DNA from: Kiritimatiellia bacterium
Lineage (GTDB): Bacteria; Verrucomicrobiota; Kiritimatiellia; UBA8416; JABMPJ01
DNA: 59,384 nt
Reading direction: 5' to 3'
NCBI GenBank assembly: GCA_029939545.1
Contig: JAOZSS010000002.1
Location: forward strand, 1-59,384
Part shown: one piece after another, positions 6,086 to 30,166 of the stretch
How the letters are laid out: each line of letters opens with the position of its first letter
Numbering within the stretch: position 1 is the stretch's first letter
Notes under the pieces: generated by a model
Told to the model about the DNA's origin: nothing
The model's database searches: none
What the model saw: only the letters and a program-made list of their open reading frames with translations
Position numbers and translations under genes: made by a program

Positions 6086-6386
6086 CCGACACTGTCCTTC
6101 CCTGCTGCTCCAGTGCATGCATTAATCAGGTGAGCATATCCCATACTGTAAGGCCACGTCACCCGTAAATCCCGTGCCTTCGCTGAAGCGGGGTACATCC
6201 TTCGTTCCTCTGTAGTCGTTGCCATATCAGTGCTGCAACAGAAAATTGGAGAGGTGGCCGCCGAGCGAATAGATCGGGTTGGATGGCCTGCCATCCGAAG
6301 CTCGCCTTCTGGCAAGACACAGGCCCCCCGTCGCCCTTTGGGCTATGGATGGCATCCTTCACTCTTGCTACGTTGCGAGCGAAGGA

Positions 6387-8649: not shown

Positions 8650-9666
8650 GTGAGTGATGACCGAACACTGGGGACCCTGAACAGCCGCGACAACGACTTT
8701 GAGCTGAGTGTGCGGCCGACGCGGTTCGAGGATTTTGCCGGCCAGGAGAAGGTGAAAGAGCGTCTGGAGTTGGCCGTCGATGCCGCGCGTCAACGCGAGG
8801 ACGTCCTCGACCACGTCTTGCTGTCGGGACCGCCTGGACTGGGCAAGACCACGCTGGCCTACATCATTGCCGAGGCGATGGGCAGCGCCATCAAGGTGAC
8901 GTCCGGCCCGATCATCGATAAACCCGGCGACCTGGCGGGGCTGCTCACCAACCTCGAGCGCGGTGACGTACTCTTCATCGACGAGATCCACCGCATGCAG
9001 AAGACGGTCGAGGAGTATCTCTATGCCGCGATGGAGGATTTCGTCCTCGATATCATGATTGACCAGGGGCCCAATGCCCGCTCGGTCCGGATTGAACTGC
9101 CGCGGTTCACGCTCCTGGGGGCCACGACACGCAGCGGACTGATCTCGTCGCCACTGCGTTCCCGGTTCGGGATCACCGACCGGCTCGATTACTATGATGC
9201 GGCAACCCTGCAACATATCGTCGAACGCACCGCCCGCATCCTCGATATCGAGGTGGAATCGGATGGCTCCATGGAGATCGCCCGCCGCTCGCGCGGCACC
9301 CCGCGTATCACGAACAACCTGCTTCGCCGCGTGCGCGATTACGCGCAGGTTCGGGCCGACAACCGCGTCACGCGGGAGGTGGCCGACAAGGCGTTAGCCA
9401 TGCTGGATATCGATGAGCAGGGGCTGGACGATATGGATAAGCGCATCCTCGAGACAATCATCCACAAGTTCTCGGGCGGCCCGGTGGGGCTCAACTCATT
9501 GGCGGTGTCCGTGGGCGAGGAGGCCGACACGATCGAAGATGTCTACGAACCCTACCTCATCCAGGAAGGATACCTGAAGCGCACCGCCCAGGGCCGCGTA
9601 GCAACCGATCTCTGTTACGAACGACTCGGGCTGAAACCGAACCAGGCGCAACAGCGACTACTGTAA
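8650..9666 (+). CDS. ruvB: Holliday junction ATP-dependent DNA helicase RuvB
   Basis: [19 protein letters not shown], Walker [12 protein letters not shown], Walker [13 protein letters not shown] start abuts the ruvA stop. Confidence 0.95.
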
Positions 9667-10244: not shown

Positions 10245-11015
10245 TTACCATTCAAGCACGAGGCCATCGTAGGACACATGCATAGTCTCCGGCAGCTTCG
10301 CCTGCGTTTCCACATGATCGAGGTCGTGGCAGAGGTGGATGATGTATGAGGTCGTGGCACCGATCTGCTTGAGCAGGGCGACGCTGTCATCGAGGGTCAG
10401 ATGGGTCAGGTGCGGCCGCAAGCGGAGCGCGTCAAGAATCATGACATCGCTGCCGCGGAAGGCGTCGATCGCTGCCTCGGTCATGACCGAGCAGTCCGGC
10501 ACATAGCCCAATGACCGGCCGTCGGAATCAAAACGAAACCCCAGGATCGTATTGTGCCCGTGTTGCACCTCGACGGGAGTCACGCGCACCTCGCCGATAT
10601 CGAACGGTTGGTCGATGGCAGTGAACGTGATGCGCGGCCGATAGAACCCCGCCACACGCTCGGTCGAGATGTAGTTGAAGACGCGCAGCAGGTTATCCAG
10701 CGTATCCTGCGACGCATACGCCGGGATGATCTCATCCTGGATCGTGTTGTAACGGCGGATGTCGTCGAAGCCGAAGATGTGGTCGGCGTGCGCATGCGTG
10801 AAGCAGACCGCATCGACACGCGGCAGCCGGTGGGCGAGGGCCTGCTCTCGGAAGTCGGGCGTGGTATCGACCACGATGTGCTTGCCGCCGGCCTCGAGGT
10901 AGAGGCTAGTACGTAGCCGCCGATTGTGAGGATCATGGGAGGCACAGACGGGGCAGTAGCACCCGATGATCGGGACGCCCGCCGAGGTGCCGGTACCGAG
11001 GAAGATCGCCTTCAT
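10245..11015 (-). CDS. MBL-fold metallo-hydrolase (PhnP-like)
   Basis: MKAIFLGTGTSAGVP...CPVC...FTHAHADH (HxHxDH) motif. ATG 11015 is preferred over ORF start 11051. Confidence 0.7.
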   Translation of the reverse strand: MKAIFLGTGTSAGVPIIGCYCPVCASHDPHNRRLRTSLYLEAGGKHIVVDTTPDFREQALAHRLPRVDAVCFTHAHADHIFGFDDIRRYNTIQDEIIPAYASQDTLDNLLRVFNYISTERVAGFYRPRITFTAIDQPFDIGEVRVTPVEVQHGHNTILGFRFDSDGRSLGYVPDCSVMTEAAIDAFRGSDVMILDALRLRPHLTHLTLDDSVALLKQIGATTSYIIHLCHDLDHVETQAKLPETMHVSYDGLVLEW

Positions 11016-11047
11016 GGAGGATATGGTGGGGTCTTTCGGTGCAAAGA

Positions 11048-11075
11048 ACAAGGCCGGACATGTGTCCGGCCTTGT
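11048..11075 (-). terminator. candidate intrinsic terminator after hppA
   Basis: Perfect 13-nt inverted repeat ACAAGGCCGGACA/TGTCCGGCCTTGT, 23 nt past the hppA stop. Followed on the minus strand by TCTTTGC, a short and imperfect U tract. Confidence 0.5.
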
Positions 11076-11098: not shown

Positions 11099-13555
11099 CT
11101 ACTTGGTGAGGTACACCACCAGGTTGCGGATCTGGTCGCCGTAGGCCACCACGACGCCGGAGAACACCACGCTGACCATGGTCATGAGCTTGATCAGGAT
11201 GTTCAGGCTTGGGCCGGAGGTATCCTTGAACGGATCGCCAACGGTGTCGCCCACGACACTGGCTTTGTGGTGTTCGGAACCTTTCCCGGTGAGCGGGGTG
11301 GTCTGCTCTGTGTCATCCGGATGATACGTCTTCTCGTTTTTTTCGATCGATTTCTTGGCGTTGTCCCAGGCGCCGCCTGCGTTGTTGAGCATACAGGCCA
11401 ATGTAAAGCCAGTGGTCAGTGCGCCGACGAGCAGACCAATCACGCCCGCTACGCCGAGGATGATGCCCACGGCCACGGGAACGATGATAGCCAGCAGGCT
11501 GGGAACCAGCATTTCTTTCTGGGCGCCCTTCGTGGAAATTGCCACGCAGTTGGCATAGTCCGGGGTGCCGGTGCCGTCCATGATGCCCGCGATTTCGCGG
11601 AACTGGCGGCGCACCTCGTTCACCATCGCGCCGGCCGCACGGCCGACGGCTTTCATGGTCATCGCGCAGAAGACAAAGGCCATCATCGCGCCGAGAAAAA
11701 TACCGCACAGGAGTTGAGGATTCATCACGGACAGATCATAGGCCAGCACGAAATCGCTCATCTTGGCGCCGGCAGTCATGACGACCCGACTCACACCTTC
11801 CACGACAGAGCCATCCATGGATCCCTGATATTTGTCCGTCACAAACAGGACCTCGCCGACCTTCTGGGCACCGGCTATCGCGCCGTCAACAACGGGCTTG
11901 TTCGCCAGCTTCATCAGCCAGATGCGGATCTCTTCGAGGTAGGCGGCCAGCAACGCCATCGCGGTCAGGGCGGCCGATCCGATCGCAAAGCCTTTGCCAA
12001 TGGCTGCGGTGGTGTTCCCCAGCATGTCCAGAGCATCGGTTTTTTTGCGAACGTCTTCGCCCAGACCGGCCATCTCTGCGTTGCCGCCGGCGTTATCGGC
12101 GATGGGACCGTAGGCATCTGTGGCCAGTGAGAAGCCGAGGGTCGAGAGCATACCGACGGCGGCAAACCCGACGCCGTAGAGGCCCATGGCGAAGTCCGTG
12201 AATCCGCCGGCAAAACCGAACGCGCAGATAATGCCGAAGACGATGGTCAGAGAGGAGAGCCCTGTGGAGAACATGCCGACGGCCAAACCGTCGATGATTG
12301 TTGTGGCCGCCCCCATCTTGGTCTGGTCCACGATGCCCTGGGTCGGTTTGTAGGCGTCAGAGGTGTAGTATTCGGTCAATACTCCGATCGCACAGCCGGC
12401 AACGAGACCGGCGCATACCGAACCGAAGATGCCCCATGTTACGATTCCGAAGACGGCCAGAAGGGCGACCACCACGGCGATCGCGGCGGTACTGAACCAC
12501 AGGGGTGTGGTCAGGGCCTTCATCAGCGTTTTCATGTCCGACTTGTCGCCGCAGCGCACCATCAGACAGCCAATGATGGAGAGGATGATGCCGATACCGG
12601 CCACAATCATCGGCGCTATCACGGCATTGACGCCATGCAGCGGATTGGGCGCGCCGCTCGCGAGTATCATCGGCAGGGCCGCGCCGAGTGCCGCTGTGGC
12701 GAGAATCGAGCCGCAGTAGGATTCGTAGAGGTCGGCACCCATGCCCGCGACGTCGCCTACGTTGTCGCCCACGTTGTCGGCTATGGTCGCCGGGTTGCGG
12801 GGATCGTCTTCCGGGATACCGGCTTCGACTTTGCCCACTAGGTCGGCTCCCACATCGGCCGCCTTGGTGTAGATACCGCCGCCCACGCGGGCGAACAGGG
12901 CCTGGGTTGATGCGCCCATGCCGAAGGTCAGCATGGTGGTCGTGATTTCAACGTACTTCTGGTGGCTGGTCATATCGGCATGGACCAGTTGCAGTCCCAG
13001 GAAACTCAGGCCGGTTCTCATGTGCTCAACCGAGTACACCAGCTTATCGAGAACCCAGTACCAAGCGCAAATATCGAGGAGGCCGAACCCGACCACGACC
13101 AGCCCCATGACGGCGCCGGAGCGAAAGGCTACCTGTAGACCGCGGTTGAGCGATTCGGACGCGCCCTGTGCGGTGCGTGCCGATGCGTTGGTGGCGGTTT
13201 TCATGCCCAGGAATCCGCAGAGACCGGAGAAGAATCCCCCGGTCAGAAACGCGATCGGCACAAACGGGTTCTGAATGCCTATCTTGGCCAATACGGCGAA
13301 GATCACTAGGAGCACGAGAAAGACAATGCCGACCACCTTGTACTGAGAGTACAGGTAAGCGTAGGCACCATCACGCACATGCTGCGCGATTTCCTTCATA
13401 TTGTCCGAGCCTTCGCTCGAACCCATCATCTTCTTATAGAAGAAGAATGCAAAACCCAGCGACAGCAACGACGCAATGGGAGCGATCCACCAGAGCAGTT
13501 CCACCTTGTTCACTATGACGTCCTTTCGGAGTGTGACCGCCTCGCAAACGGCCAT
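11099..13555 (-). CDS. hppA: membrane-bound proton/sodium-translocating pyrophosphatase, K+-dependent subtype
   Basis: [55 protein letters not shown]. Ala rather than Lys after GNTT marks the K+-dependent clade. The ORF upstream of 13555 is Arg/Gly/Pro junk overlapping the cyclase gene. Alternative GTG start at 13513. Confidence 0.9.
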
Positions 13556-13644
13556 GTTACCCACTGCCCGCCGACTCCGGCGGGCAAAACTGAAACGAGC
13601 CTGTACCATAGCGGAGTGGAGGGGCGGGATCAATGAGAAAGGCA

Positions 13645-15909
13645 CTAATCCTTCGTGGCTCGCACGTACTCGCCTTCCCAGTCGTCCGGCGGGGGCGTTT
13701 CGCGGTAGCCCATGATGCGGATACGGAGGGTGTTGCTGGGGCCGTCGTCCGGGTCGATTCCAAGCGCCTCGGCCAGCTTGTAGAGGGCATCGTCCCAGTG
13801 GCGCTCCCAGTGCAGGTGCAGTGCCTCGGTGTAGAGTGAGGCCATCTTGCGGGTGTCGTCGCTGATGGCACCACGCTTGCCGAGGAGTTCGTAGACATTG
13901 ACCGGCTTGGATTTGCCCTGCACCACGATCTTGTCGAGGAAGCGCACCTCGATCACATCGCGCGCCGCCTCGGCTGTGGCCTCGCCGATCAGGATGGAGG
14001 TGCCGTACTCCTTGTTGGTAGGCTCCAGCCGCGAGGCGAAGTTCACGGCATCGCCCATGACGGTATAGGAAAAGCGCATGTCGGAGCCCATATTGCCGGC
14101 CGTCACGGTGCCCGTGTTGATGCCCATGCGAACCGTAATGGTCTGCCCGAACTCTTTCTCCAGCTCGGGCCGGAGCTGGGCCAGGCGCTCCTGCTGTTCC
14201 ACGGCAGCCAGGCAGGCCTGGGCCGCATGGTCGTCGGCCCGGAACGGTACGCCCCATTCGGCCATGACCGCGTCACCCTCGTACTTATCCACGTAGCCAC
14301 CGTGCCCCAGGATGATATTGGTCATGGGCGTCAGGTAGCGGTTGAGCAGTTCGGTCATCCGGTCGGGCTCCATCTGCTCGGAGATGGTGGTGAACCCGGC
14401 GACGTCGGAGAAGAACATCGTGGCTTCGGCGCGTTCCCCGCGCAGCGAGAAGCTCTCCGGGTTGGTTTCGAGGTAGCGCAACACGTCGCGCGACACCATG
14501 GTGCCGAACATGTTGCGCACATGCTTCTTCTGCTGCTCTTCCTGCCAGAACCGGATCATGGTCAGCACCGGGTAGATGAGGAGCGTGGAGAGCATGGTCC
14601 ATGCCGGGACAAATACCATCTGCCGATGTTTCAGCAGTAGGATCGCGGTTGCCAGCGACAGGCCAAGCGTCACGAGGGTCAGCAGGAACGAGAGCCACGA
14701 GCATCCACGCGAGATCAGGAACGTCATGAACAGGCCGACCAGGAGAATCGCCATGAACTGGGCGCCGTCCATCCAGTTCGGCTCGCGCAGCGCGTCGCCC
14801 GCGAGAATATTATCGACCATCGTGGCATGCACCTCGACGCCCGGGAACAGACTGGTCAGCGGGGTGGCACGCAGGTCGCGCAGCCCGATCGCGGATGTCC
14901 CCACGAACACGATCTTGTTGCTCAGGACACTGGAGGAGACCGTGCCGTCGAGGAGGTCAGCCGCCGAGTACGTGGGAAACGAGGAGGCTAGTCCGGTATT
15001 CGGATTCTCAGTTGTGGTGCGGTAGTTCACAACGAGTCGCCCCGACTTCGTACACGGGATCACCATGTCACGCAGCCGGAGTTGGACTACGCCCCTCTTG
15101 TCGTATTCGATCATGCACTGGTCGAGGCCCCGGTCGAGCCGGACCGCCTCCAGGGCGAGCGAGGGGTAGATGCGTTGCGGCCCGAACGCCCAGATTAGCG
15201 GGTTGCGGCGGACCACGTTGTCGGCATCGACCGACGCGTTGAAGAAGGCTGTTTCGGCGGATTTCCGGAGCTGCGGAATGGAGACGGTGATCTCGCGCGC
15301 TTGGGTCAGGTACGCGTTGATGTTGGTCGCTCCCGCGCCGCCTCGCAGGAAGAAACGCGAACCATCATAGAGCGGATCGGACGCCTCAGGGGCCTCGTTG
15401 ACCATCGTGGGTGACACGTGCATGAAGCATCCCAGGATCGTCTGGCCCTCCGACAGGGCCAGGGCCAGCAGGTGGTCATAATCATCCATCCCTTCAGGAA
15501 GCCCCTTGATTTCTACATTCAGGTTGAGATTGCGATGAAGGTCGGCGCGGATCTCGTTGGGCGAGGTCCGGTCGGCCTCTGCAAAGACCACGTCGTAGGC
15601 CACGACCGACGGACTGCCGCTGAGAATCCGTTCGGTCAGGCGCGCGGTCAGGTAACGTGGCCACGGCCATTGGCCCAGTTGCTGGAGACTGGCTTCATCG
15701 AGATCGACGATGGCTACCCGGCCGGACTTGGAATCGCCATGGACCTCTCGAAGCAGCGCATCGTAGAGCTTGTCCGACACCGCATCGACCACGTCGAGGC
15801 CGAGGATGAAGATGACCAGGCAGAGCAGTGTGACCAGGCAGCCGATGGTCCACACCAGCGGAATGCGCCGGAGCACTCGCCGACTGAATATCCTGCGCCA
15901 CCATCCCAT
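13645..15909 (-). CDS. CHASE2-sensor class III adenylate/guanylate cyclase
   Basis: N-terminal TM, CHASE2 motifs (VAIVDLDEASLQQLGQWPWPRYLTA, AYDVVFAEAD), three TM helices, then the cyclase core (FFSDVAGFTTISE, DKYEGDAVMAEWGVPF, GINTGTVTAGNMG). Confidence 0.85.
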   Translation of the reverse strand: MGWWRRIFSRRVLRRIPLVWTIGCLVTLLCLVIFILGLDVVDAVSDKLYDALLREVHGDSKSGRVAIVDLDEASLQQLGQWPWPRYLTARLTERILSGSPSVVAYDVVFAEADRTSPNEIRADLHRNLNLNVEIKGLPEGMDDYDHLLALALSEGQTILGCFMHVSPTMVNEAPEASDPLYDGSRFFLRGGAGATNINAYLTQAREITVSIPQLRKSAETAFFNASVDADNVVRRNPLIWAFGPQRIYPSLALEAVRLDRGLDQCMIEYDKRGVVQLRLRDMVIPCTKSGRLVVNYRTTTENPNTGLASSFPTYSAADLLDGTVSSSVLSNKIVFVGTSAIGLRDLRATPLTSLFPGVEVHATMVDNILAGDALREPNWMDGAQFMAILLVGLFMTFLISRGCSWLSFLLTLVTLGLSLATAILLLKHRQMVFVPAWTMLSTLLIYPVLTMIRFWQEEQQKKHVRNMFGTMVSRDVLRYLETNPESFSLRGERAEATMFFSDVAGFTTISEQMEPDRMTELLNRYLTPMTNIILGHGGYVDKYEGDAVMAEWGVPFRADDHAAQACLAAVEQQERLAQLRPELEKEFGQTITVRMGINTGTVTAGNMGSDMRFSYTVMGDAVNFASRLEPTNKEYGTSILIGEATAEAARDVIEVRFLDKIVVQGKSKPVNVYELLGKRGAISDDTRKMASLYTEALHLHWERHWDDALYKLAEALGIDPDDGPSNTLRIRIMGYRETPPPDDWEGEYVRATKD

Positions 15910-15927
15910 AGTGCTCCCGGAGGCTCG

Positions 15928-17421
15928 TCAGAGTTCGTTCATGTCATACAGGTCGGTCGCAAACCCGCCGTCGACCTCTGCATCGGGGCCGTGCGTGAAA
16001 CCGAAAGAGCCGAACGCTCCTGTGACCGGGTCGGGATCAGGCAGGCCGGGGCCTACGATGTTGCCCTGAATACTCTCGGCAGTGAGCGTGCCGTCCGGGA
16101 ACGAAAGGCCGTGGACCTCCATCATATAGTAGGTCTGGTTTCCGCTAAGTGTCCCGTCCGACTGGATGGCGCCATCGGCCTCGAAGTAGAGCGACCCATC
16201 GTCGCTCGACATATCGAAGGTGCCGTCCCAGTTCGGTGCCACGTTGTTTCCTACCTGCACATTCAAGTCGCACGTACCCTCGACACCAACGATCTCCCCA
16301 TCATGTAGAATCGTCGCCGCGGCATCGCCGCTTCCGGTCAGGTTGAAGAGCTGCGGGCCGATTTCCAGATCTGTGAACGCAGAGTCATCAATGATCCGTG
16401 TGCCGCTGAACGAATAGCTCTGCAACTCACCATCACACTCCCAGTGGCCCCAGTCCCAGTCAATGCCACTGCCCCGCGGAACAAAGACGCACGTCGGGCC
16501 AGGCTCTGGCTCTGGCTCTGGCTCTGGCTCGGGGTCCGGCTCTGGCTCGGGGTCGGGTTCGGGATCAGGTTCTGGCTCTGGCTCTGGAGGTGGCGGGTCT
16601 GGTAGCGGCAATTCAGAAGGAGGGCGTGGTCCGAGCGGTGGGGTGGCACCCGCCTTGGGAAGAAAGCTGCCCAGTCCGGCGAGGAACAGGTCGGGAGAAA
16701 GATCATCCACTTTGAACCCGCGGATTGAGATGTCGTCGCCCACCTCTACGGCGCTCAGGAAGGCGGCGAGAAGCTCGGAAGGCAGGTCGAGCACCTGTAT
16801 CGGCTTGCCCTTGCGAAGCAGAACGCGTTTGCGTGATTCGTCAATCAGGATCTCTGTGCGGCCGCTTTTCTTTCGTCCTCGCCCGAACAGCGACCATCTC
16901 CCGCCGCCGGAAGCCTGTGCGTCTGTCTCGACCGAGACCTGTTCCGGACCATGCAGCGTGATGATGTAGATGTCTTCAGCATCGGGCAGTACTTTGAAAC
17001 CGAGGTCGCAGCCGCGGATACCGATTGTGGCCATGCGTGTCCTGACCTTGAAGCGTTTTGGATTCAGCCGCGTGATCTTGTCGGTAACCACTCTGAACAG
17101 GCCCTTGGTTATTCCCAGCTTAGCACGGTTGCGTGACTTTTGGTTGGGGTCATAGACATACTCGTCAATTACCAGTTCACTCTTCTCGCCCTGGGAGACA
17201 AGGGAGTCGTCCACGAACAGGATTTGCAGCTTGCTGCCTTCGTCCGTACTGATCCGGTCGAGCGGAAACACCGGGCTCTGGATCGCCAGCGCACGCCGCG
17301 CCCCTTTCTGGTTCACGGCCGAGGCCGTGCCTTCCAGCGCAACAACTTTCCCGGCCGGGTCCACGACGGCGAACGCTACCCCCAGGGACGTGACGCTCAG
17401 CAACATGGCAAGGCAGAGCAT
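15928..17421 (-). CDS. secreted FecR-domain protein with (PE/PD)n linker and TbpB-like C-terminal beta domain
   Basis: Signal peptide MLCLAMLLSVTSLGVAFA. FecR motifs (GKVVALEGTASAV, DRISTDEGSKLQILFVDDS, ATIGIRGCDLGFKV). PEPEPEPDPEPDPEPEPDPEPEPEPEPEP spacer. C-terminus GAFGSFGFTHGPDAEVDGGFATDL. An alternative coupled start at 17493 reads through the heptad repeat. Confidence 0.7.
   Translation of the reverse strand: MLCLAMLLSVTSLGVAFAVVDPAGKVVALEGTASAVNQKGARRALAIQSPVFPLDRISTDEGSKLQILFVDDSLVSQGEKSELVIDEYVYDPNQKSRNRAKLGITKGLFRVVTDKITRLNPKRFKVRTRMATIGIRGCDLGFKVLPDAEDIYIITLHGPEQVSVETDAQASGGGRWSLFGRGRKKSGRTEILIDESRKRVLLRKGKPIQVLDLPSELLAAFLSAVEVGDDISIRGFKVDDLSPDLFLAGLGSFLPKAGATPPLGPRPPSELPLPDPPPPEPEPEPDPEPDPEPEPDPEPEPEPEPEPGPTCVFVPRGSGIDWDWGHWECDGELQSYSFSGTRIIDDSAFTDLEIGPQLFNLTGSGDAAATILHDGEIVGVEGTCDLNVQVGNNVAPNWDGTFDMSSDDGSLYFEADGAIQSDGTLSGNQTYYMMEVHGLSFPDGTLTAESIQGNIVGPGLPDPDPVTGAFGSFGFTHGPDAEVDGGFATDLYDMNEL
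16502..16587 (-). repeat. imperfect hexanucleotide microsatellite (GGCTCT/GGGTCN)n encoding the Pro-Glu/Pro-Asp linker
   Basis: Read directly in the sequence; in frame within the FecR-domain gene. Confidence 0.9.
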
Positions 17422-17455
17422 TCTGCGCCTGAGCCTTGGGGTATTGGTGGGGGTA

Positions 17456-17483
17456 CATTCCGCATTCCGCATTCCGCATTCCG
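17456..17483 (-). repeat. four perfect tandem heptamers (plus CATTCCG; sense GCGGAAT), degenerate fifth unit to 17490
   Basis: Read directly. Lies between the barrel-gene stop (17493-17495) and the FecR-gene ATG 17421. Confidence 0.95.
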
Positions 17484-17492
17484 CATTTCTCA

Positions 17493-18995
17493 TCAGAACC
17501 TCCCCCAGTAACCCAACATGGTCACGTTGCGGTCATAGTCATACAGCTCAAACGTGGAAGCGTTGTCGGTGTATTGGTGCTTCAACTCTAGCCCCGTCTT
17601 CCCGAACAGTCGCAACGTTGCCTTGGCGTTGAGCTGTAGTCGTTCGTCCACCCGGTCTCGCGGGGCCAGCACCTCGCGTGCATCATGCTCATTGCGAGTG
17701 TAGCGGGCCGAGGCAGACAGGTTCAGCCGCCCCCAGATAACGGTTGCTCCAGCCACACCGGAAAGCCCGGTATAGGAGAAGATGGCCGCATCGGCATTGT
17801 TGTCGGCCACGCGCAGCCCGGCGAACACCGATGTGTTGTCGGTCAGCATGAGTCGTGCGGTCTGCTCCAGACCAAGATAGAGCCCGTCATAGGTATTGCG
17901 CGTATCGTACTCACGGTGTTCAGCCAGCAGGGCTGAGATCCAGTAGAGGCGGTGACCGCCTGGCTTGAAGATGCGCAGATAGGCCGGCATGATTCCGACG
18001 GTGTCGACCAACGGATCGGAGCCGTCCCAGATGCGTGCAGCACGTACGACTCCCTTGAAGATCCCTTTTTTCGATGCATGCTTGACCCCGAGCGCCACGC
18101 GCACGAGGCGAGTCTCATACCCTTCTTTTGATTCGAACGGGTACCCGAGCACGGCGCACAACAGACGTTTGTCAGAGTCCTGTTCATCGAGCCAGTTCTC
18201 GTAGTAATTCAGGTCTGCGGCCGCTCCCCATCCGCCGGACTGACCAAAGTCATAGAGCGTTTCCACGGTGGCGGCGGCATAGGCCCCGCTGGTATCGACC
18301 GGTTGGGACTCTCGATCTACCGACAGCTCTGTGAAAACGTACGGTCCCATGCTGATGGGGGAGACCGCCACGGTATCGCTGCTGGGCCCCACGTTGACGT
18401 TATCATCGTGGATGGCCCCCGCGTCGAGCCGCACTGACACATGGAAGCGTTTGCCTTGGCGATCGATCTCGGCTAGCTGCCTCTTGATCTTACGGGCCAC
18501 GTTCTCGGGTGGGTCCTGGGCGAGGACATGCTCGTAGGTGCGACGGGCGACATCGTGTCGGCCCGACAGTGTGCAGACTCGCGCCAGCTCGACCCCGGCC
18601 CGGTGGTTGTCCGGGGAGATCTGGATAACGCGTTCGAACGCCAGCTCGGCCCGGGCCAGGTCGTTGCGCTTGACCGAGAGCACGCCGATGATGAAGTTGA
18701 GCTCGGGGACACGCGGGTGCTCACGCATCAGCCCGGCCAGCAGGTGCCATGCCCGGTCGAGCGACTCCTGCGGCAGGGGGTGCGTCGGCTCGTGAGGGCC
18801 GCGCGTGAACGTTTCAAAGTAGGCGGCCTGGGTTTCGGTCAGTAGCGACATGACCTCTGCCCGTTTGCCCGCCCTCAAGGCCACTTGCAGGGCCGTCTCA
18901 CCTTCCGCGTTGCGGAACGGTTCCTCCGCTCGGGCAAGTGTTCCCACGATCAACAATATCGTGCTCGCAAGCACCAACCATCTGCGCATCGTCAT
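17493..18995 (-). CDS. outer-membrane protein: N-terminal TPR domain + C-terminal beta-barrel, Slam/DUF560 (type XI secretion)-like
   Basis: Signal peptide MTMRRWLVLASTILLIVGTLARA and about 160 aa of TPR-like helices. These are followed by about 310 aa of amphipathic beta strands (HDDNVNVGP..., ...RVDERLQLNAKATLRL...YTDNASTFELYDYDRNVTMLGYWGRF) with a terminal Phe. Size and layout match Neisseria Slam. Family call is by eye only. Confidence 0.55.
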   Translation of the reverse strand: MTMRRWLVLASTILLIVGTLARAEEPFRNAEGETALQVALRAGKRAEVMSLLTETQAAYFETFTRGPHEPTHPLPQESLDRAWHLLAGLMREHPRVPELNFIIGVLSVKRNDLARAELAFERVIQISPDNHRAGVELARVCTLSGRHDVARRTYEHVLAQDPPENVARKIKRQLAEIDRQGKRFHVSVRLDAGAIHDDNVNVGPSSDTVAVSPISMGPYVFTELSVDRESQPVDTSGAYAAATVETLYDFGQSGGWGAAADLNYYENWLDEQDSDKRLLCAVLGYPFESKEGYETRLVRVALGVKHASKKGIFKGVVRAARIWDGSDPLVDTVGIMPAYLRIFKPGGHRLYWISALLAEHREYDTRNTYDGLYLGLEQTARLMLTDNTSVFAGLRVADNNADAAIFSYTGLSGVAGATVIWGRLNLSASARYTRNEHDAREVLAPRDRVDERLQLNAKATLRLFGKTGLELKHQYTDNASTFELYDYDRNVTMLGYWGRF

Positions 18996-27361: not shown

Positions 27362-30166
27362 TCATCTCCTCGGGCGGGTAGACTCCGCCAGAACCTCCTT
27401 CATGGCATCAACAGCGGGTGTGTCGACCAAAGGGGCGTCAGGCCCATAGGCCAAGTGCAATGCTCCGCTGCGAGCGAGATGGCGCAGTCGGCCTCGCAGG
27501 CTGCTTGCCCTGATGGGTTTATTCTTCTTCCCGTCAACCGCCTGGAGCTTGAAAATCGTCTTCTCCAGGCCGTTGACCTTGGCGTCAGCAAGGCCGACCA
27601 GTTTGGCCAGCCACGCGTCCGGCCGGTGGATATCTTCCATTTCCACATAGGCCATCAACAGCACGTGGTCATAGAGCTCCACGGCATCTGCGTAGTTCTG
27701 TGCAAACCATTGCTCCGATTTCGGGTAGTGAAGCAGCGGTGCGAAGATGGCGCGCGCAAGCTGACAGCGGGGACGGTAGCGCTTGACTTGTTTGCCCAGC
27801 CGCGTGGTCAGGCGATTGAGCGTCTCGGTCTTGATTCGAACCCACGCCTGCTCCTGCTCGCTGCTAAGGCTGCCGGTACCCGGGGTCGCGGTCCCGAGCC
27901 GGGCGGCAAAGACCTTCTGGGCTGCCGAGTTATAGTCCTCGCTATCCGTGAGGTAGGCGTCCTCTCCGAAGACGATGCCATCACACCGGACGTGTTCGGC
28001 CATGTCGCGATAGAGCTGGGTTACCCAAGTGATTACATCAGGATGGAAGGGGGAGTATCGCTGCTGTAACGCGAAAGAGGGGCGAACCCCAGCGGTCCGG
28101 GCCTCCATCACGCGCATGGTGTCGTTGCGGGGTGTGGCGGGTCGATCAAAGCTGAGCACGGGTAGTTTGAGCCACACGCGGAATCGTGCGCTCTGTAGGC
28201 GCGCCACCACGTGATCGAGAGCGTCGTGCAACACCGGTAGCTGTGTCGTGGGAAAGTAGGCGGCTTCGACGTTGCCGTCGCCATCGCTGTCGGCGCAGGC
28301 TTTGAGGATGACCGTGTTGGCGCCGAGAGTCCGCAGCCGCTGTGCCAGTCGGATGATGTTGCGGTCCAGTTCCTGGTTGGTGGGGGCATCGATGGCGTCC
28401 ATCGGAACACTGACCGCCCGGACCTGCGCGATGGGGGGCGGCCCCGGTTTGACCAGTGAGATGAAGCTCCCCACGGCGGGGTTGTGCAGGACAGGCACAC
28501 GCTCGAGCGTTTCGGTGTCCGTGATATGCGGTTGCGCGTGCAGGCCCAGTTGCAGCACGAACCCGAGCCGTTCCGCTTCAGCGGCCGCCGGGGCATTGCG
28601 GGCGCCATGCGACCACACCAGCACACGCGGTCGTGATCCCGTACGTTCTTTCATCAAGCGCACGGCATGGCTGAGTGTCGCCTGGATGCGCGAGCGTTGC
28701 TCGGCTTCTGTTTCGTAACGACCTGTCCCTGCATCATAGAGGCGCGTGATGGCGGCAAACCCGACATCGCCCTGCGGGTTGCCGCATACCAGTTCAAACA
28801 GCCCCTCGGCTTCGACCCCCAGTGTCACGAGACGGTGACCGGCAAGTTGACCTATCTCGTCCCATGACATCAACGGTCCACTCAGGTCCATGGGCGGGCC
28901 GTTTTCAATCCAGGCCGGGCATACGGAGACAATGACAGGGATATCATAGAGTTCGAGAACCGGAACGACGTGCTTCATAACGCCGGCGTAGCCGTGGTCG
29001 AATGTGAGGAGCACGGCGTTGTCGGGAAGGCTCCGCTCACCGCGCCGTGCCGCGGCAATGTCGCCGGCGCTCACGAAGTGGTAGTCGTGTGTGCGAAGGT
29101 ACTCGATATGCTGTAAGAAGCGCAGTGAAGCCATGGCGGTAGGTGCTCGGTTCTCACGGTCGCTCACGTCGAAGTAGCAGAGGGCCAGCAGCTCGTCGGG
29201 CTCGAACGACGGAAGTACGCTGACATCGCCGCTGGTCTCATCCCAAGCGGCTTGCGCCTCGACCATGCGTGATTCGACGTGGCGCCGGACATGGGCCCAC
29301 ATCAGGGAGGGGTGGGCCGCCACGACTTCCTGGGCCAGGCTCAAGCAGCCCATGTCGCACAGGAGTTGGGCCTTGAGGTTCACGGCATCGGCGCTGTCCG
29401 GGTCAAGTTCGAGAATTCGATCAAACGTATCGAGGGCGAGAACCCGAGTGCCGGCCTGCCACTGAACAGCCGCCAACGCGAGCAGGAGCGTCGGGCGCTG
29501 CGGATTGAGACGGATCGTGCGCTGGATGGCCTCCAGCGCATCGTCGTAGCGCTTGTCGTCGAGCAGGGCGAGGGCGAGACCCAGGCCGGCATCGGCATCG
29601 GCCGGTGTTGCCTCGATGATGGTGCGGTAGATGGTAGCGGCCTCGGAGCGCTTTCCGCCCTCGCGGTAGGCGTCGGCCACGGAGCGCAGCATGGGGGTGG
29701 GCAGTACATAGCCTTCCGGTAGTCCCTCGTAGGCTTTGATCAGCTCGGTCGTGGCGCTGGTATTGAGGAGTGCTTCCAGATAGGCGGGCTTGAGAAACTC
29801 GGCCTCCGGGGCCAGCGTCACGGCCCGGCGCAGAAGCGTGAGTGCGCGGGTGTCTTCGCTGCCTTGGGCAGCCTTGTGCAGAACCATCACGAGCAGGTTG
29901 CGCGCACGGATGTCATTCGGGGTGACGGTCAGGATCTTTTCATATGTCTCCACGGCACCATCGTAATCCTGCGTCCGCCGCTGCATGGCGCCCTTGGCGG
30001 ATAGGAGGCCTGCGTCATTAGGGGCGGCCCCAAGCTTCTTTTCGATCTGATCGAGTGTCTCTGGTTGCAGGGAGTCTGCCCGTGTACCGGTCAGCGCAAC
30101 AAGCGTAAGCGCGGTGAGCAAACATACGAAGCGCGTAGCACGCCAAAGTCGAATGGACATAGACAC
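27362..30166 (-). CDS. TPR-repeat protein fused to PgaB-like poly-beta-1,6-GlcNAc N-deacetylase / GHL13 domains
   Basis: Signal peptide and about 260 aa of TPRs. CE4-like region (LLTFDHGYAGV, PRVLVWSHGARNAPAAAEAERLGF). C-terminal region NQELDRNIIRLAQRLRTLGANTVILKACADSDGDGNVEAAYFP... aligns by eye with the E. coli PgaB C-terminal domain. Confidence 0.75.
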   Translation of the reverse strand: MSMSIRLWRATRFVCLLTALTLVALTGTRADSLQPETLDQIEKKLGAAPNDAGLLSAKGAMQRRTQDYDGAVETYEKILTVTPNDIRARNLLVMVLHKAAQGSEDTRALTLLRRAVTLAPEAEFLKPAYLEALLNTSATTELIKAYEGLPEGYVLPTPMLRSVADAYREGGKRSEAATIYRTIIEATPADADAGLGLALALLDDKRYDDALEAIQRTIRLNPQRPTLLLALAAVQWQAGTRVLALDTFDRILELDPDSADAVNLKAQLLCDMGCLSLAQEVVAAHPSLMWAHVRRHVESRMVEAQAAWDETSGDVSVLPSFEPDELLALCYFDVSDRENRAPTAMASLRFLQHIEYLRTHDYHFVSAGDIAAARRGERSLPDNAVLLTFDHGYAGVMKHVVPVLELYDIPVIVSVCPAWIENGPPMDLSGPLMSWDEIGQLAGHRLVTLGVEAEGLFELVCGNPQGDVGFAAITRLYDAGTGRYETEAEQRSRIQATLSHAVRLMKERTGSRPRVLVWSHGARNAPAAAEAERLGFVLQLGLHAQPHITDTETLERVPVLHNPAVGSFISLVKPGPPPIAQVRAVSVPMDAIDAPTNQELDRNIIRLAQRLRTLGANTVILKACADSDGDGNVEAAYFPTTQLPVLHDALDHVVARLQSARFRVWLKLPVLSFDRPATPRNDTMRVMEARTAGVRPSFALQQRYSPFHPDVITWVTQLYRDMAEHVRCDGIVFGEDAYLTDSEDYNSAAQKVFAARLGTATPGTGSLSSEQEQAWVRIKTETLNRLTTRLGKQVKRYRPRCQLARAIFAPLLHYPKSEQWFAQNYADAVELYDHVLLMAYVEMEDIHRPDAWLAKLVGLADAKVNGLEKTIFKLQAVDGKKNKPIRASSLRGRLRHLARSGALHLAYGPDAPLVDTPAVDAMKEVLAESTRPRR

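Follow-up and report, generated by a model that had tools for sequence, protein, structure and literature searches.

This study concerns three consecutive genes of a Kiritimatiellia bacterium that lie in a 59,384-nucleotide stretch of DNA (contig JAOZSS010000002.1 of assembly GCA_029939545.1; hereafter, the window). They are same-direction open reading frames (ORFs) of the minus strand and encode, in order, a TPR-containing beta-barrel protein that we class with the DUF560 family of outer-membrane proteins, a secreted FecR-domain protein whose C-terminal lobe has a predicted TbpB-like fold, and an inner-membrane protein that joins a CHASE2 sensor to a class III cyclase (Table 1). We propose that this trio probably relays a cell-surface signal to cyclic AMP (cAMP), a role not previously assigned to the type XI secretion system (T11SS) family. 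In its specific form, our reading is that the three genes constitute one envelope-spanning relay, which converts an outer-membrane event into cAMP by means of a tethered or threaded FecR protein and is a split version of the NsrA system of Sinorhizobium meliloti; we place its probability at roughly 55%. The arrangement of barrel, FecR protein and cyclase goes far beyond what chance would produce, as one and the same gene order is found again in different phyla. An initial annotation of the locus had already delimited the three ORFs and assigned their domains, and the ORF list and Pfam agree with it in coordinates, strand and domain content.

Table 1. Coordinates of the module and its parts (window positions, except where a homologous locus is named).
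Feature	Coordinates	Strand	Description
Gene 1, DUF560/SlipAM (Slam, T11SS) family outer-membrane protein	17493..18995	-	500 aa; signal peptide MTMRRWLVLASTILLIVGTLARA, TPR, barrel
TPR region of gene 1	18453..18770	-	residues ~76-181; Pfam TPR_19, TPR_9, TPR_2, TPR_16; AlphaFold2 helices 76-181
Beta-barrel of gene 1	17496..18449	-	residues 183-500; 14 long predicted strands (DSSP of AlphaFold2 model)
Heptanucleotide repeat GCGGAAT x4.6, perfect	17456..17487	-	Tandem Repeats Finder (TRF); between TGATG overlap and signal-peptide ATG at 17421
Gene 2, secreted FecR-domain protein	15928..17421	-	497 aa (521 aa with start at 17493)
FecR domain (PF04773) of gene 2	16948..17259	-	residues 55-158; E 1e-9, 39.1 bits against a cut-off of 24
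(PE/PD)n low-complexity linker of gene 2	16498..16608	-	residues ~272-308; TRF (GGCTCT)14 at 16502-16587
C-terminal lobe of gene 2, predicted TbpB/NHBA/HpuA-like handle-plus-barrel fold	15931..16497	-	189 aa; AlphaFold2 and Foldseek
Gene 3, inner-membrane CHASE2-class III adenylate cyclase	13645..15909	-	754 aa; Pfam matches
Periplasmic CHASE2 domain of gene 3	14731..15825	-	residues 29-393; Pfam
Cytoplasmic class III cyclase domain of gene 3	13891..14427	-	residues 495-673; Pfam, CyaB alignment
Lobe-less FecR variants	L035 9962-10759, L043 4130-4876, L039 8077-9024, L065 9902-10930		Pontiellaceae and a Pseudomonadota metagenome-assembled genome (MAG)

The product of gene 1 ends in NVTMLGYWGRF, of which GYWGRF resembles a beta-signal. 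Several Pfam TPR families match its residues ~79-175, and SlipAM/DUF560 (PF04575) aligns residues 288-491 with profile positions 75-279 of 288 (E 2e-4). This match reaches 21.4 bits and lies 0.6 bit below the curated threshold (gathering score 22); we class gene 1 as a divergent DUF560-family member. Judged from its homologues, the family to which gene 1 belongs is clearly DUF560. When 46 barrel sequences, 45 of them gathered from genome loci (alignment A5), were scanned against Pfam, SlipAM was matched by 33 at E <= 0.01, with a best E of 1.9e-12, and TPR_Slam by 29; one homologue (P0006) carries the NCBI label 'DUF560 domain-containing protein [Lentisphaerae bacterium]'. Close homologues of the barrel are few, and a profile search with alignment A2 gained just P0119 and one TPR protein. 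Our AlphaFold2 model, built on a 14-sequence alignment, shows helices as far as residue 181, after which 14 long strands follow (predicted local distance difference test, pLDDT, 76; predicted template modelling score, pTM, 0.57). The T11SS has been defined by 14 strands and a short TPR region, as against the 16-stranded PgaA (PMC8406197), and gene 1 fits this definition. In Foldseek searches the barrel alone best matched the 14-stranded CymA and OmpG (target-normalized TM-score, TMt, 0.53-0.69), and the whole model best matched the TPR-plus-barrel exporters BcsC and PelBC, while PDB sequence and profile searches gave matches confined to the TPR part, for example, the TPR protein PA4667. The layout that the initial annotation had read in gene 1, a signal peptide followed by TPR helices and a barrel of the Slam/DUF560 type, is thus borne out by the Pfam matches of the homologues and by the 14-strand model; its DUF560 assignment stands for the family and narrowly misses the threshold for the window protein. 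TPR_Slam (PF24575) was rejected as T11SS-specific evidence, since an unrelated PgaB-like protein of the window (27362-30166, minus strand, 934 aa, with TPR, polysaccharide deacetylase and GHL13 domains) scores better with it, at 2.4e-10.

Some peculiarities of the barrel family were also recorded. The window protein carries a 21-aa insertion, DSDKRLLCAVLGYPFESKEGY (window 18117-18179, residues 273-293), in the loop that joins predicted strands 3 and 4 and is modelled at low confidence, and this insertion is missing in every homologue of alignment A2, including the 95%-identical P0001. Ankyrin repeats lie N-terminal of the TPR region in 12 of the 46 barrel homologues (Ank_2, best E 5.5e-30), and the stretch RNAEGETALQVALRAGKRAEVMSLL at residues ~26-55 of the window barrel resembles a lone ankyrin-like remnant; periplasmic ankyrin repeats are unusual on an outer-membrane protein. 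In P0012, a 411-aa protein from a 3.1-kb NCBI contig, a mid-barrel homologue (...ARLMLTD) is fused directly to the C-terminal half of a cyclase (IILAHGGYVDKYEGD...). The remainder of the barrel is absent, as are the FecR gene and the CHASE2 domain, and P0012 represents either a deletion variant or a chimera of the assembly.

The lobe that closes the FecR-domain protein (...GAFGSFGFTHGPDAEVDGGFATDLYDMNEL) was modelled with high confidence, at pLDDT 97.4 and pTM 0.91 from a 38-sequence alignment. Its top PDB match in Foldseek is the C-domain of NHBA (6cuj, E 2e-6, TMt 0.69); the other matches include the TbpB C-lobe (5kkx, E 1.5e-5, query-normalized TM-score, TMq, 0.57), full TbpB (3ve1, 4qq1 and 4o4x, TMq 0.58-0.61 over about 205-219 columns) and HpuA (9mr0 and 5ee2). 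The Foldseek probability is 1.00 for each of 6cuj, 5kkx, 3ve1, 4qq1, 4o4x and 9mr0. The handle plus 8-strand barrel by which a TbpB_B_D lobe is recognized is found in this comparison, and Ail and OmpX rank below NHBA and TbpB (TMq 0.39-0.46, E 1.8e-4 to 1e-2). According to the model, the lobe is therefore TbpB-like by fold, as had been proposed from the letters alone. The corresponding Pfam match was not obtained in the window FecR protein, whose lobe matches neither TbpB_B_D (PF01298) nor PF08794 at E <= 1. A homologue of Hydrogenimonas thermophila (P0071) does pass the TbpB_B_D profile (PF01298, 3.3e-10, 41 bits versus a cut-off of 26), and its FecR domain is 38% identical to that of the window. 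Rhodopseudomonas FecR homologues have the classical ...GEMGG...GIFAAKMK tail. The lobe is well conserved, and its family ends in G-x-FGADL and then a variable tail. The initial annotation had matched FTHGPDAEVDGGF to the signature F-x-G-P-x-A-E-x-x-GG-x-F; this register found no support and is probably wrong by one strand, in that the profile alignment, whose hhalign probability is low, sets GGFATDL against GIFAAK, the last strand in the proteobacterial homologues.

We searched the lobe profile exhaustively in 1.84 billion representative proteins. The lobe was found in 211 representative clusters only, always at the C-terminus, and a FecR N-domain was present on 87 of the 89 full-length representatives newly returned among the best 150 lobe-profile matches. 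These sequences indicate that lobe and FecR domain form a dedicated architecture. The idea that the lobe is a general modular export tag was rejected, as it occurs almost solely with FecR N-domains in the representative library.

Upstream of the lobe, the gene 2 protein has a cleavable signal peptide of the Ala-x-Ala type, cut between AFA and V, and no lipobox was found in its N-terminus. More than 100 homologues of this protein were collected, in which the FecR N-domain is the best-conserved part and contains a near-invariant ATIGIRGC(D/E)LGF motif (alignment A3). Across the family, the linker between FecR domain and lobe measures 13-524 aa (median 110) and is rich in P/G/A/D/T/S/E. The FecR domain named in the initial annotation is recognized by Pfam, and the (PE/PD)n spacer is real, being encoded by the hexanucleotide array listed in Table 1.

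Gene 3 was correctly described from the beginning as a CHASE2 sensor fused to a class III cyclase (Pfam CHASE2 2.4e-55, Guanylate_cyc 1.9e-22). The best PDB match of its cyclase domain is CyaB of Pseudomonas aeruginosa (3r5g, E 6.4e-38), with which it shares the conserved segments FSDvaGFT, dKyeGD, yTvmGd and vNfaSRle, and the metal-binding Asp, the Lys/Thr substrate pair and the Asn/Arg residues align between the two proteins. Because the Lys/Thr residues of CyaB are kept, the product is probably cAMP rather than cGMP.

The conservation of the locus was studied at several distances. The succession of barrel, FecR protein, CHASE2 cyclase, H+-pyrophosphatase, metallo-beta-lactamase (MBL)-fold gene and NusG is unchanged in close relatives, at 64% and 56% identity. 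A scan of the genome collection with the full-length FecR alignment A3 yielded 79 loci, whose ORFs were called and then searched with purpose-built profiles; the set like the Planctomycetes-Verrucomicrobia-Chlamydiae (PVC) group comprises Lentisphaerota, Kiritimatiellia, Verrucomicrobiota and one Omnitrophota MAG, and counts are given over assessable FecR genes. In this set, 41 of 58 FecR genes have the barrel directly upstream, 29 of 52 have a CHASE2 cyclase directly downstream, and 25 of 48 belong to a full triad. The corresponding figures in Proteobacteria are 15 of 18, 11 of 15 and 9 of 13, and the genera represented include Rhodopseudomonas, Bradyrhizobium, Tardiphaga, Pseudolabrys, Tagaea and Acidiferrobacter. 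Hydrogenimonas thermophila has a TPR-barrel gene, a FecR+TbpB_B_D gene, a divergent CHASE2 cyclase and a PDEase_II-GAF-HD phosphodiesterase. Our neighbourhood survey shows that the triad, conceived in the initial annotation from one locus, is conserved in PVC-group phyla, Alpha- and Gammaproteobacteria and Campylobacterota. Pairs of barrel and FecR-lobe genes occur without an adjacent cyclase at eight loci (L004, L009, L012, L013, L016, L023, L037 and L063). Because variants drop the lobe or the adjacent cyclase, the invariant core of the module is a FecR domain adjoining a TPR-barrel protein.

Several genomes carry the module more than once. Two or three copies are found in some of them, for example, L026, L030 and L063 from one MAG, and tandem duplications occur at L044 (5920-14812), L050 (6257-14965) and L036 (2545-9581). 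Two of the tandem loci have the order barrel, short FecR, barrel, FecR-lobe, cyclase, and one has barrel, FecR-lobe, cyclase, FecR-lobe. Other genes accompany the module: a large CHASE-dCache-PAS histidine kinase is encoded near it at 22 loci of PVC bacteria and Rhodopseudomonas (e.g., L054 4826-8551), and genes for export of the NHLP-bacteriocin type adjoin FecR/CHASE2-cyclase modules on an Ensifer plasmid (L084 7606-13102), at L065 (15693-17834) and at five further loci. These export genes include a C39 peptidase ABC transporter and a HlyD-like protein and, on the Ensifer plasmid, additionally a cyclic-nucleotide (cNMP)-binding protein.

A precedent for the proposed relay exists in S. meliloti, where NsrA, a beta-barrel protein of the outer membrane, is required if the CHASE2 cyclases CyaK and CyaD1/D2 are to perceive a protein signal (PMC7529298, PMC13001267). 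The barrel loops alone of NsrA are surface-exposed (PMC7529298). We read the architecture of NsrA from the pSymB record, in which the gene directly upstream of cyaK is annotated 'FecR domain-containing protein' and encodes 1190 aa with a Pfam layout of FecR (66-160), TPR (417-587) and a C-terminal barrel; a tblastn search with the Rhodopseudomonas FecR domain did not recover pSymB. With this domain order, NsrA is a Rosetta-stone fusion of the window barrel and FecR protein, minus the lobe, with its FecR domain on the periplasmic side. Both systems have the gene of an outer-membrane-associated FecR-domain protein immediately upstream of a gene for a CHASE2 class III cyclase, and the relay proposed for the window has the same logic, from outer membrane to FecR domain to CHASE2 to cAMP. 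They differ in that NsrA is one polypeptide of 1190 aa, whereas the window divides these parts between a TPR-barrel protein and a FecR-linker-lobe protein, and in that NsrA lacks the TbpB-like lobe that the window FecR protein possesses. The NsrA barrel, of ~590 aa, gives a weak TonB-dependent-receptor-like Pfam hint (OMP_b-brl_3), has no SlipAM (DUF560) match at E <= 0.01 in Pfam, and matches the window barrel profile marginally (E 3e-4 over about 120 residues).

Other known systems resemble the window in part. The Slam/T11SS systems, whose cargo in our comparison comprised TbpB, LbpB, fHbp, HpuA, hemophilin/HrpC, HphA, NilC and Pls, likewise have an outer-membrane protein with an N-terminal TPR region and a 14-strand DUF560 barrel (PMC8406197, PMC12282271) and a neighbouring gene for a Sec-exported protein whose N-terminal part varies and whose C-terminal part is a TbpB-like lobe; in the window, too, the lobe gene stands beside the barrel gene, as is expected of T11SS cargo. 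However, the passenger in the window is a FecR signalling domain, whereas T11SS passengers are nutrient-binding or adhesin domains; the lobe is near-exclusive to FecR proteins, unlike T11SS cargo lobes; the module is tied to a CHASE2 cyclase; and the host belongs to the PVC group, while the T11SS literature describes the family in Proteobacteria. The FecA-FecR-FecI system shares with the window an outer-membrane barrel, a periplasmic FecR domain (PF04773) and a cytoplasmic output. In contrast to the FecR of FecIRA, which has a cytoplasmic anti-sigma domain and a transmembrane helix, the window FecR protein has a cleavable signal peptide and its output is a cyclase on a separate protein, and neither an extracytoplasmic-function (ECF) sigma factor nor a TonB-dependent transducer is adjacent to the window module. 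It has also been reported that secreted LysM-FecR (COG4254) proteins are encoded beside CHASE2 histidine kinases in the Burkholderia BiofilmReg, in Burkholderiales and as PA4035/PA4036 of P. aeruginosa (PMC5192318). These operons, like the window, place a secreted FecR-domain protein beside a CHASE2 sensor, but their anchor is LysM on peptidoglycan rather than a lobe and an outer-membrane barrel, and their output is a histidine kinase rather than a cyclase. Such pairing independently supports the view that the FecR domain partners CHASE2 in the periplasm. Finally, a FecR/CHASE2-cyclase gene cluster was noted in Campylobacterota, where a homologue was called an outer membrane protein and no link to T11SS or to a TbpB-like lobe was made (PMC9239204). 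This cluster, as seen in Hydrogenimonas, is the same triad as that of the window; its lobe is a classical Pfam TbpB_B_D, whereas that of the PVC group is a divergent subfamily, and it includes the PDEase_II-GAF-HD phosphodiesterase, whereas the window has no recognizable dedicated one.

On the basis of the domain identities, folds, gene order, conservation and fusion precedent described above, we propose the following mechanism. The barrel would engage the TbpB-like lobe and display or hold it at the outer membrane, a lobe of this type being, to our knowledge, the only kind of domain that DUF560-type barrels handle. The Pro/Glu/Asp-rich linker would act as a spacer, either threaded in the barrel or stretched over the periplasm, so that the conserved N-terminal FecR domain would remain periplasmic and contact CHASE2. 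An event at the lobe or barrel, be it the binding of a ligand, a mechanical change or a change of occupancy, would then be passed through the FecR domain to CHASE2, which would switch the cytoplasmic class IIIb cyclase and alter cAMP. A tethered or threaded topology is favoured over simple secretion because canonical T11SS release would take the FecR domain away from the periplasmic CHASE2. Three outcomes had been named in the initial annotation as refuting its reading, namely a barrel without a DUF560 match or from an unrelated family, a C-terminal domain of another fold, and a triad that related genomes do not conserve; none of them was obtained. The trans-envelope relay already imagined in the initial annotation gains support from conservation and from the NsrA-CyaK precedent; its export step, surface display and direction of signalling are what we infer.

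A number of observations weigh against this relay. At the level of sequence, the PDB sequence and profile searches with the lobe returned nothing significant and no TbpB, and hhalign aligned the PVC lobe with the lobes of proteobacterial FecR proteins only weakly (52% probability, E 1.4e-4; 15% for the lobe tail alone), so that homology with the proteobacterial lobes by sequence is at best weakly indicated and is not established by hhalign. The window barrel itself falls just under the Pfam PF04575 cut-off, its structural model is of moderate confidence, and no Slam chain is present among the 1536 Foldseek matches of that model, the fold-level comparison having been made without a Slam structure. 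An adjacent CHASE2 gene is missing for ~40% of the assessable PVC FecR genes. In addition, some FecR proteins (L035, L043, L039 and L065) have a disordered tail in place of the lobe and are still flanked by barrel and cyclase genes; because these lobe-less variants keep barrel and cyclase, the lobe is not essential to the module. Known T11SS carry their whole cargo across the outer membrane and release it when it is non-lipidated, and we know of no precedent in this family for a threaded topology.

Several other explanations were weighed against the tethered relay, and one of them dispenses with translocation. In such a periplasmic adaptor, the barrel would be a receptor or porin, the whole FecR-lobe protein would bridge the TPR region or periplasmic face of the barrel to CHASE2, and the lobe would be a binding or docking domain. 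This would copy the periplasmic half of NsrA, whose FecR and TPR regions are N-terminal to the barrel and so periplasmic (PMC7529298), and the superior conservation of the FecR N-domain and the retention of barrel and cyclase by lobe-less variants are consistent with it. We consider it unlikely, however, since the fold of the lobe is specifically that of Slam/T11SS cargo, a DUF560-family barrel accompanies the lobe at 41 of the 58 assessable PVC loci, and such lobe-barrel pairing is the signature by which T11SS cargo is predicted (PMC8406197, PMC12282271). The opposite possibility is canonical T11SS secretion, by which the entire non-lipidated FecR-lobe protein would be released in the manner of hemophilin/HphA, to serve as an extracellular binder or as a FlgM-like export checkpoint; in the latter version, a periplasmic pool of FecR-lobe protein would inhibit or activate CHASE2 and the export rate would set cAMP. 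The pair of TbpB-like lobe and DUF560 barrel and the lack of a lipobox speak for secretion, as non-lipidated T11SS cargo is secreted (PMC8406197; bioRxiv 10.1101/2023.03.29.534853). It is nonetheless made quite unlikely by the periplasmic location of the FecR domain in the NsrA fusion, by the pairing of FecR with periplasmic CHASE2 sensors also in systems that lack a barrel (PMC5192318), and by the lobe itself, which, unlike a general export tag, is almost never joined to other passengers.

The fold searches leave room for two further explanations, in which the barrel is not a translocon for the lobe. Ail and OmpX are among the Foldseek matches of the lobe (E 1.8e-4 to 1e-2), and the Campylobacterota homologue was termed an outer membrane protein (PMC9239204); the lobe could accordingly be a membrane-embedded 8-strand barrel of the OmpX/Ail type, and the TPR-barrel protein its assembly factor or partner. 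This is very improbable, given that NHBA and TbpB rank higher and span all 189 residues including the handle (TMq 0.55-0.61 versus 0.39-0.46), that the family ends in G-x-FGADL and a variable tail with no C-terminal aromatic beta-signal, and that the Hydrogenimonas homologue passes the Pfam TbpB_B_D profile. The other explanation takes gene 1 for a polysaccharide export porin of the PgaA/BcsC/PelB type, whose adjacency to the FecR and cyclase genes would be functionally meaningless. It could appeal to the BcsC and PelBC matches of the whole model, to the PgaB-like gene at 27362-30166 and to the fact that PF04575 also catches some PgaA proteins (PMC8406197). With a model of 14 rather than 16 strands, a short TPR region, no synthase genes adjacent, and a barrel-FecR adjacency conserved across phyla with a stop/start overlap, we regard it as extremely improbable.

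A bolder version of the tethered relay extends it to a whole branch of the DUF560/T11SS family, which would not serve to secrete nutrient-binding proteins but would form the outer-membrane half of a trans-envelope receptor, the barrel permanently holding a threaded protein with the lobe facing outward and the FecR domain acting as the direct 'ligand' of CHASE2. We advance this version tentatively and at less than even odds. The candidate receptor branch is widespread, occurring in PVC-group bacteria, Alpha- and Gammaproteobacteria and Campylobacterota. If the version is true, CHASE2 is a sensor gated by a protein partner and not by a small molecule, and T11SS extends beyond Proteobacteria.

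The boundary between genes 1 and 2 deserves separate attention. With the starts picked in the initial annotation, the intergenic gaps are 71 and 18 nt, the latter preceding gene 3. The first of these may in fact be coding: the ORF of gene 2 is open upstream to an ATG at 17493, which overlaps the stop codon of the barrel gene as TGATG (17491-17495), and orthologues at L002 and L005 begin at the TGATG start and run straight into the signal peptide. We counted this stop/start overlap as translational coupling of the barrel and FecR genes. The heptanucleotide repeat of Table 1 lies in this interval. At the same position, L007 (~6255-6300) has a different 7-mer, GCAGGAT x4, and L001 (~9440-9540) has two short GCGGAAT runs, while L002 and L005 have no heptamer repeat; the repeat is thus an insertion between start and signal peptide in the window, L001 and L007. 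Each heptamer unit contains an ATG, and start codons are consequently available in all three frames. The repeat may permit slipped-strand (phase or translational) variation of a surface-related protein.

The neighbours of the module are an H+-pyrophosphatase, an MBL-fold protein, NusG, DUF6868 and an FGE-sulfatase protein, and the promoter and terminator scan around the operon did not outperform shuffled sequence. Transporters of the ShlB type, which the initial annotation had mentioned as neighbours of FecR-CHASE2 pairs in other phyla, were not seen, no search aimed at them having been made. The longest ORF of the H+-pyrophosphatase (window 11099-14257, minus strand, 1052 aa) has ~750 nt of its upstream end inside the cyclase gene; because its orthologues measure 802 aa, the true start is probably near 13507, ~137 nt past the cyclase stop. 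Two genes downstream of the cyclase (10245-11051, minus strand), a 268-aa Lactamase_B_2 protein with an HAHADH motif is encoded, which could hydrolyse cNMP. Its synteny is confined to close relatives (L001, L002 and L005), and a weak Anti-Pycsar_Apyc1 match was seen among the precomputed Pfam results for its orthologues. We did not count it as the phosphodiesterase of the module, since it matches Lactamase_B_2 only and not PDEase_II; no dedicated phosphodiesterase is recognizable in the window apart from this nearby gene. An MBL-fold (Lactamase_B_2) hydrolase is encoded near the module at 12 loci (e.g., L064 7397-8422), and the phosphodiesterase of Hydrogenimonas lies at L086 1995-4355. The MBL-fold proteins near modules may be the cAMP phosphodiesterases of the pathway.

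It is necessary to separate what was already known from what our study adds. The Campylobacterota cluster, the genetics of NsrA-CyaK and the public DUF560 and FecR labels on homologues were known, and the finding joins two known kinds of system rather than creating a new category. The T11SS has been described as proteobacterial (PMC8406197, PMC12282271), and in these two papers neither FecR nor a cyclase occurs; the HphA preprint (10.1101/2023.03.29.534853) mentions FecR solely as a filter for neighbours related to iron. No link between the FecR/CHASE2 cluster and T11SS was found in the papers searched.

Of the ten sequence clusters of DUF560/T11SS, nine are environmental, with neither a characterized member nor a known cargo (PMC8406197). 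For some of these uncharacterized clusters, the module described here proposes a signalling function and a FecR-lobe cargo, and it would extend the DUF560 family to Lentisphaerota, Kiritimatiellota and Verrucomicrobiota. According to domain databases, what CHASE2 domains recognize is not known (PMC5192318); a conserved FecR partner tied to an outer-membrane barrel is a concrete and testable input for them. The NsrA-CyaK genetics, the Campylobacterota cAMP cluster and the FecR-CHASE2 kinase operons would then form one class of relay with interchangeable outer anchors: LysM in one case, a fused barrel in another and a T11SS barrel with its lobe in the third.

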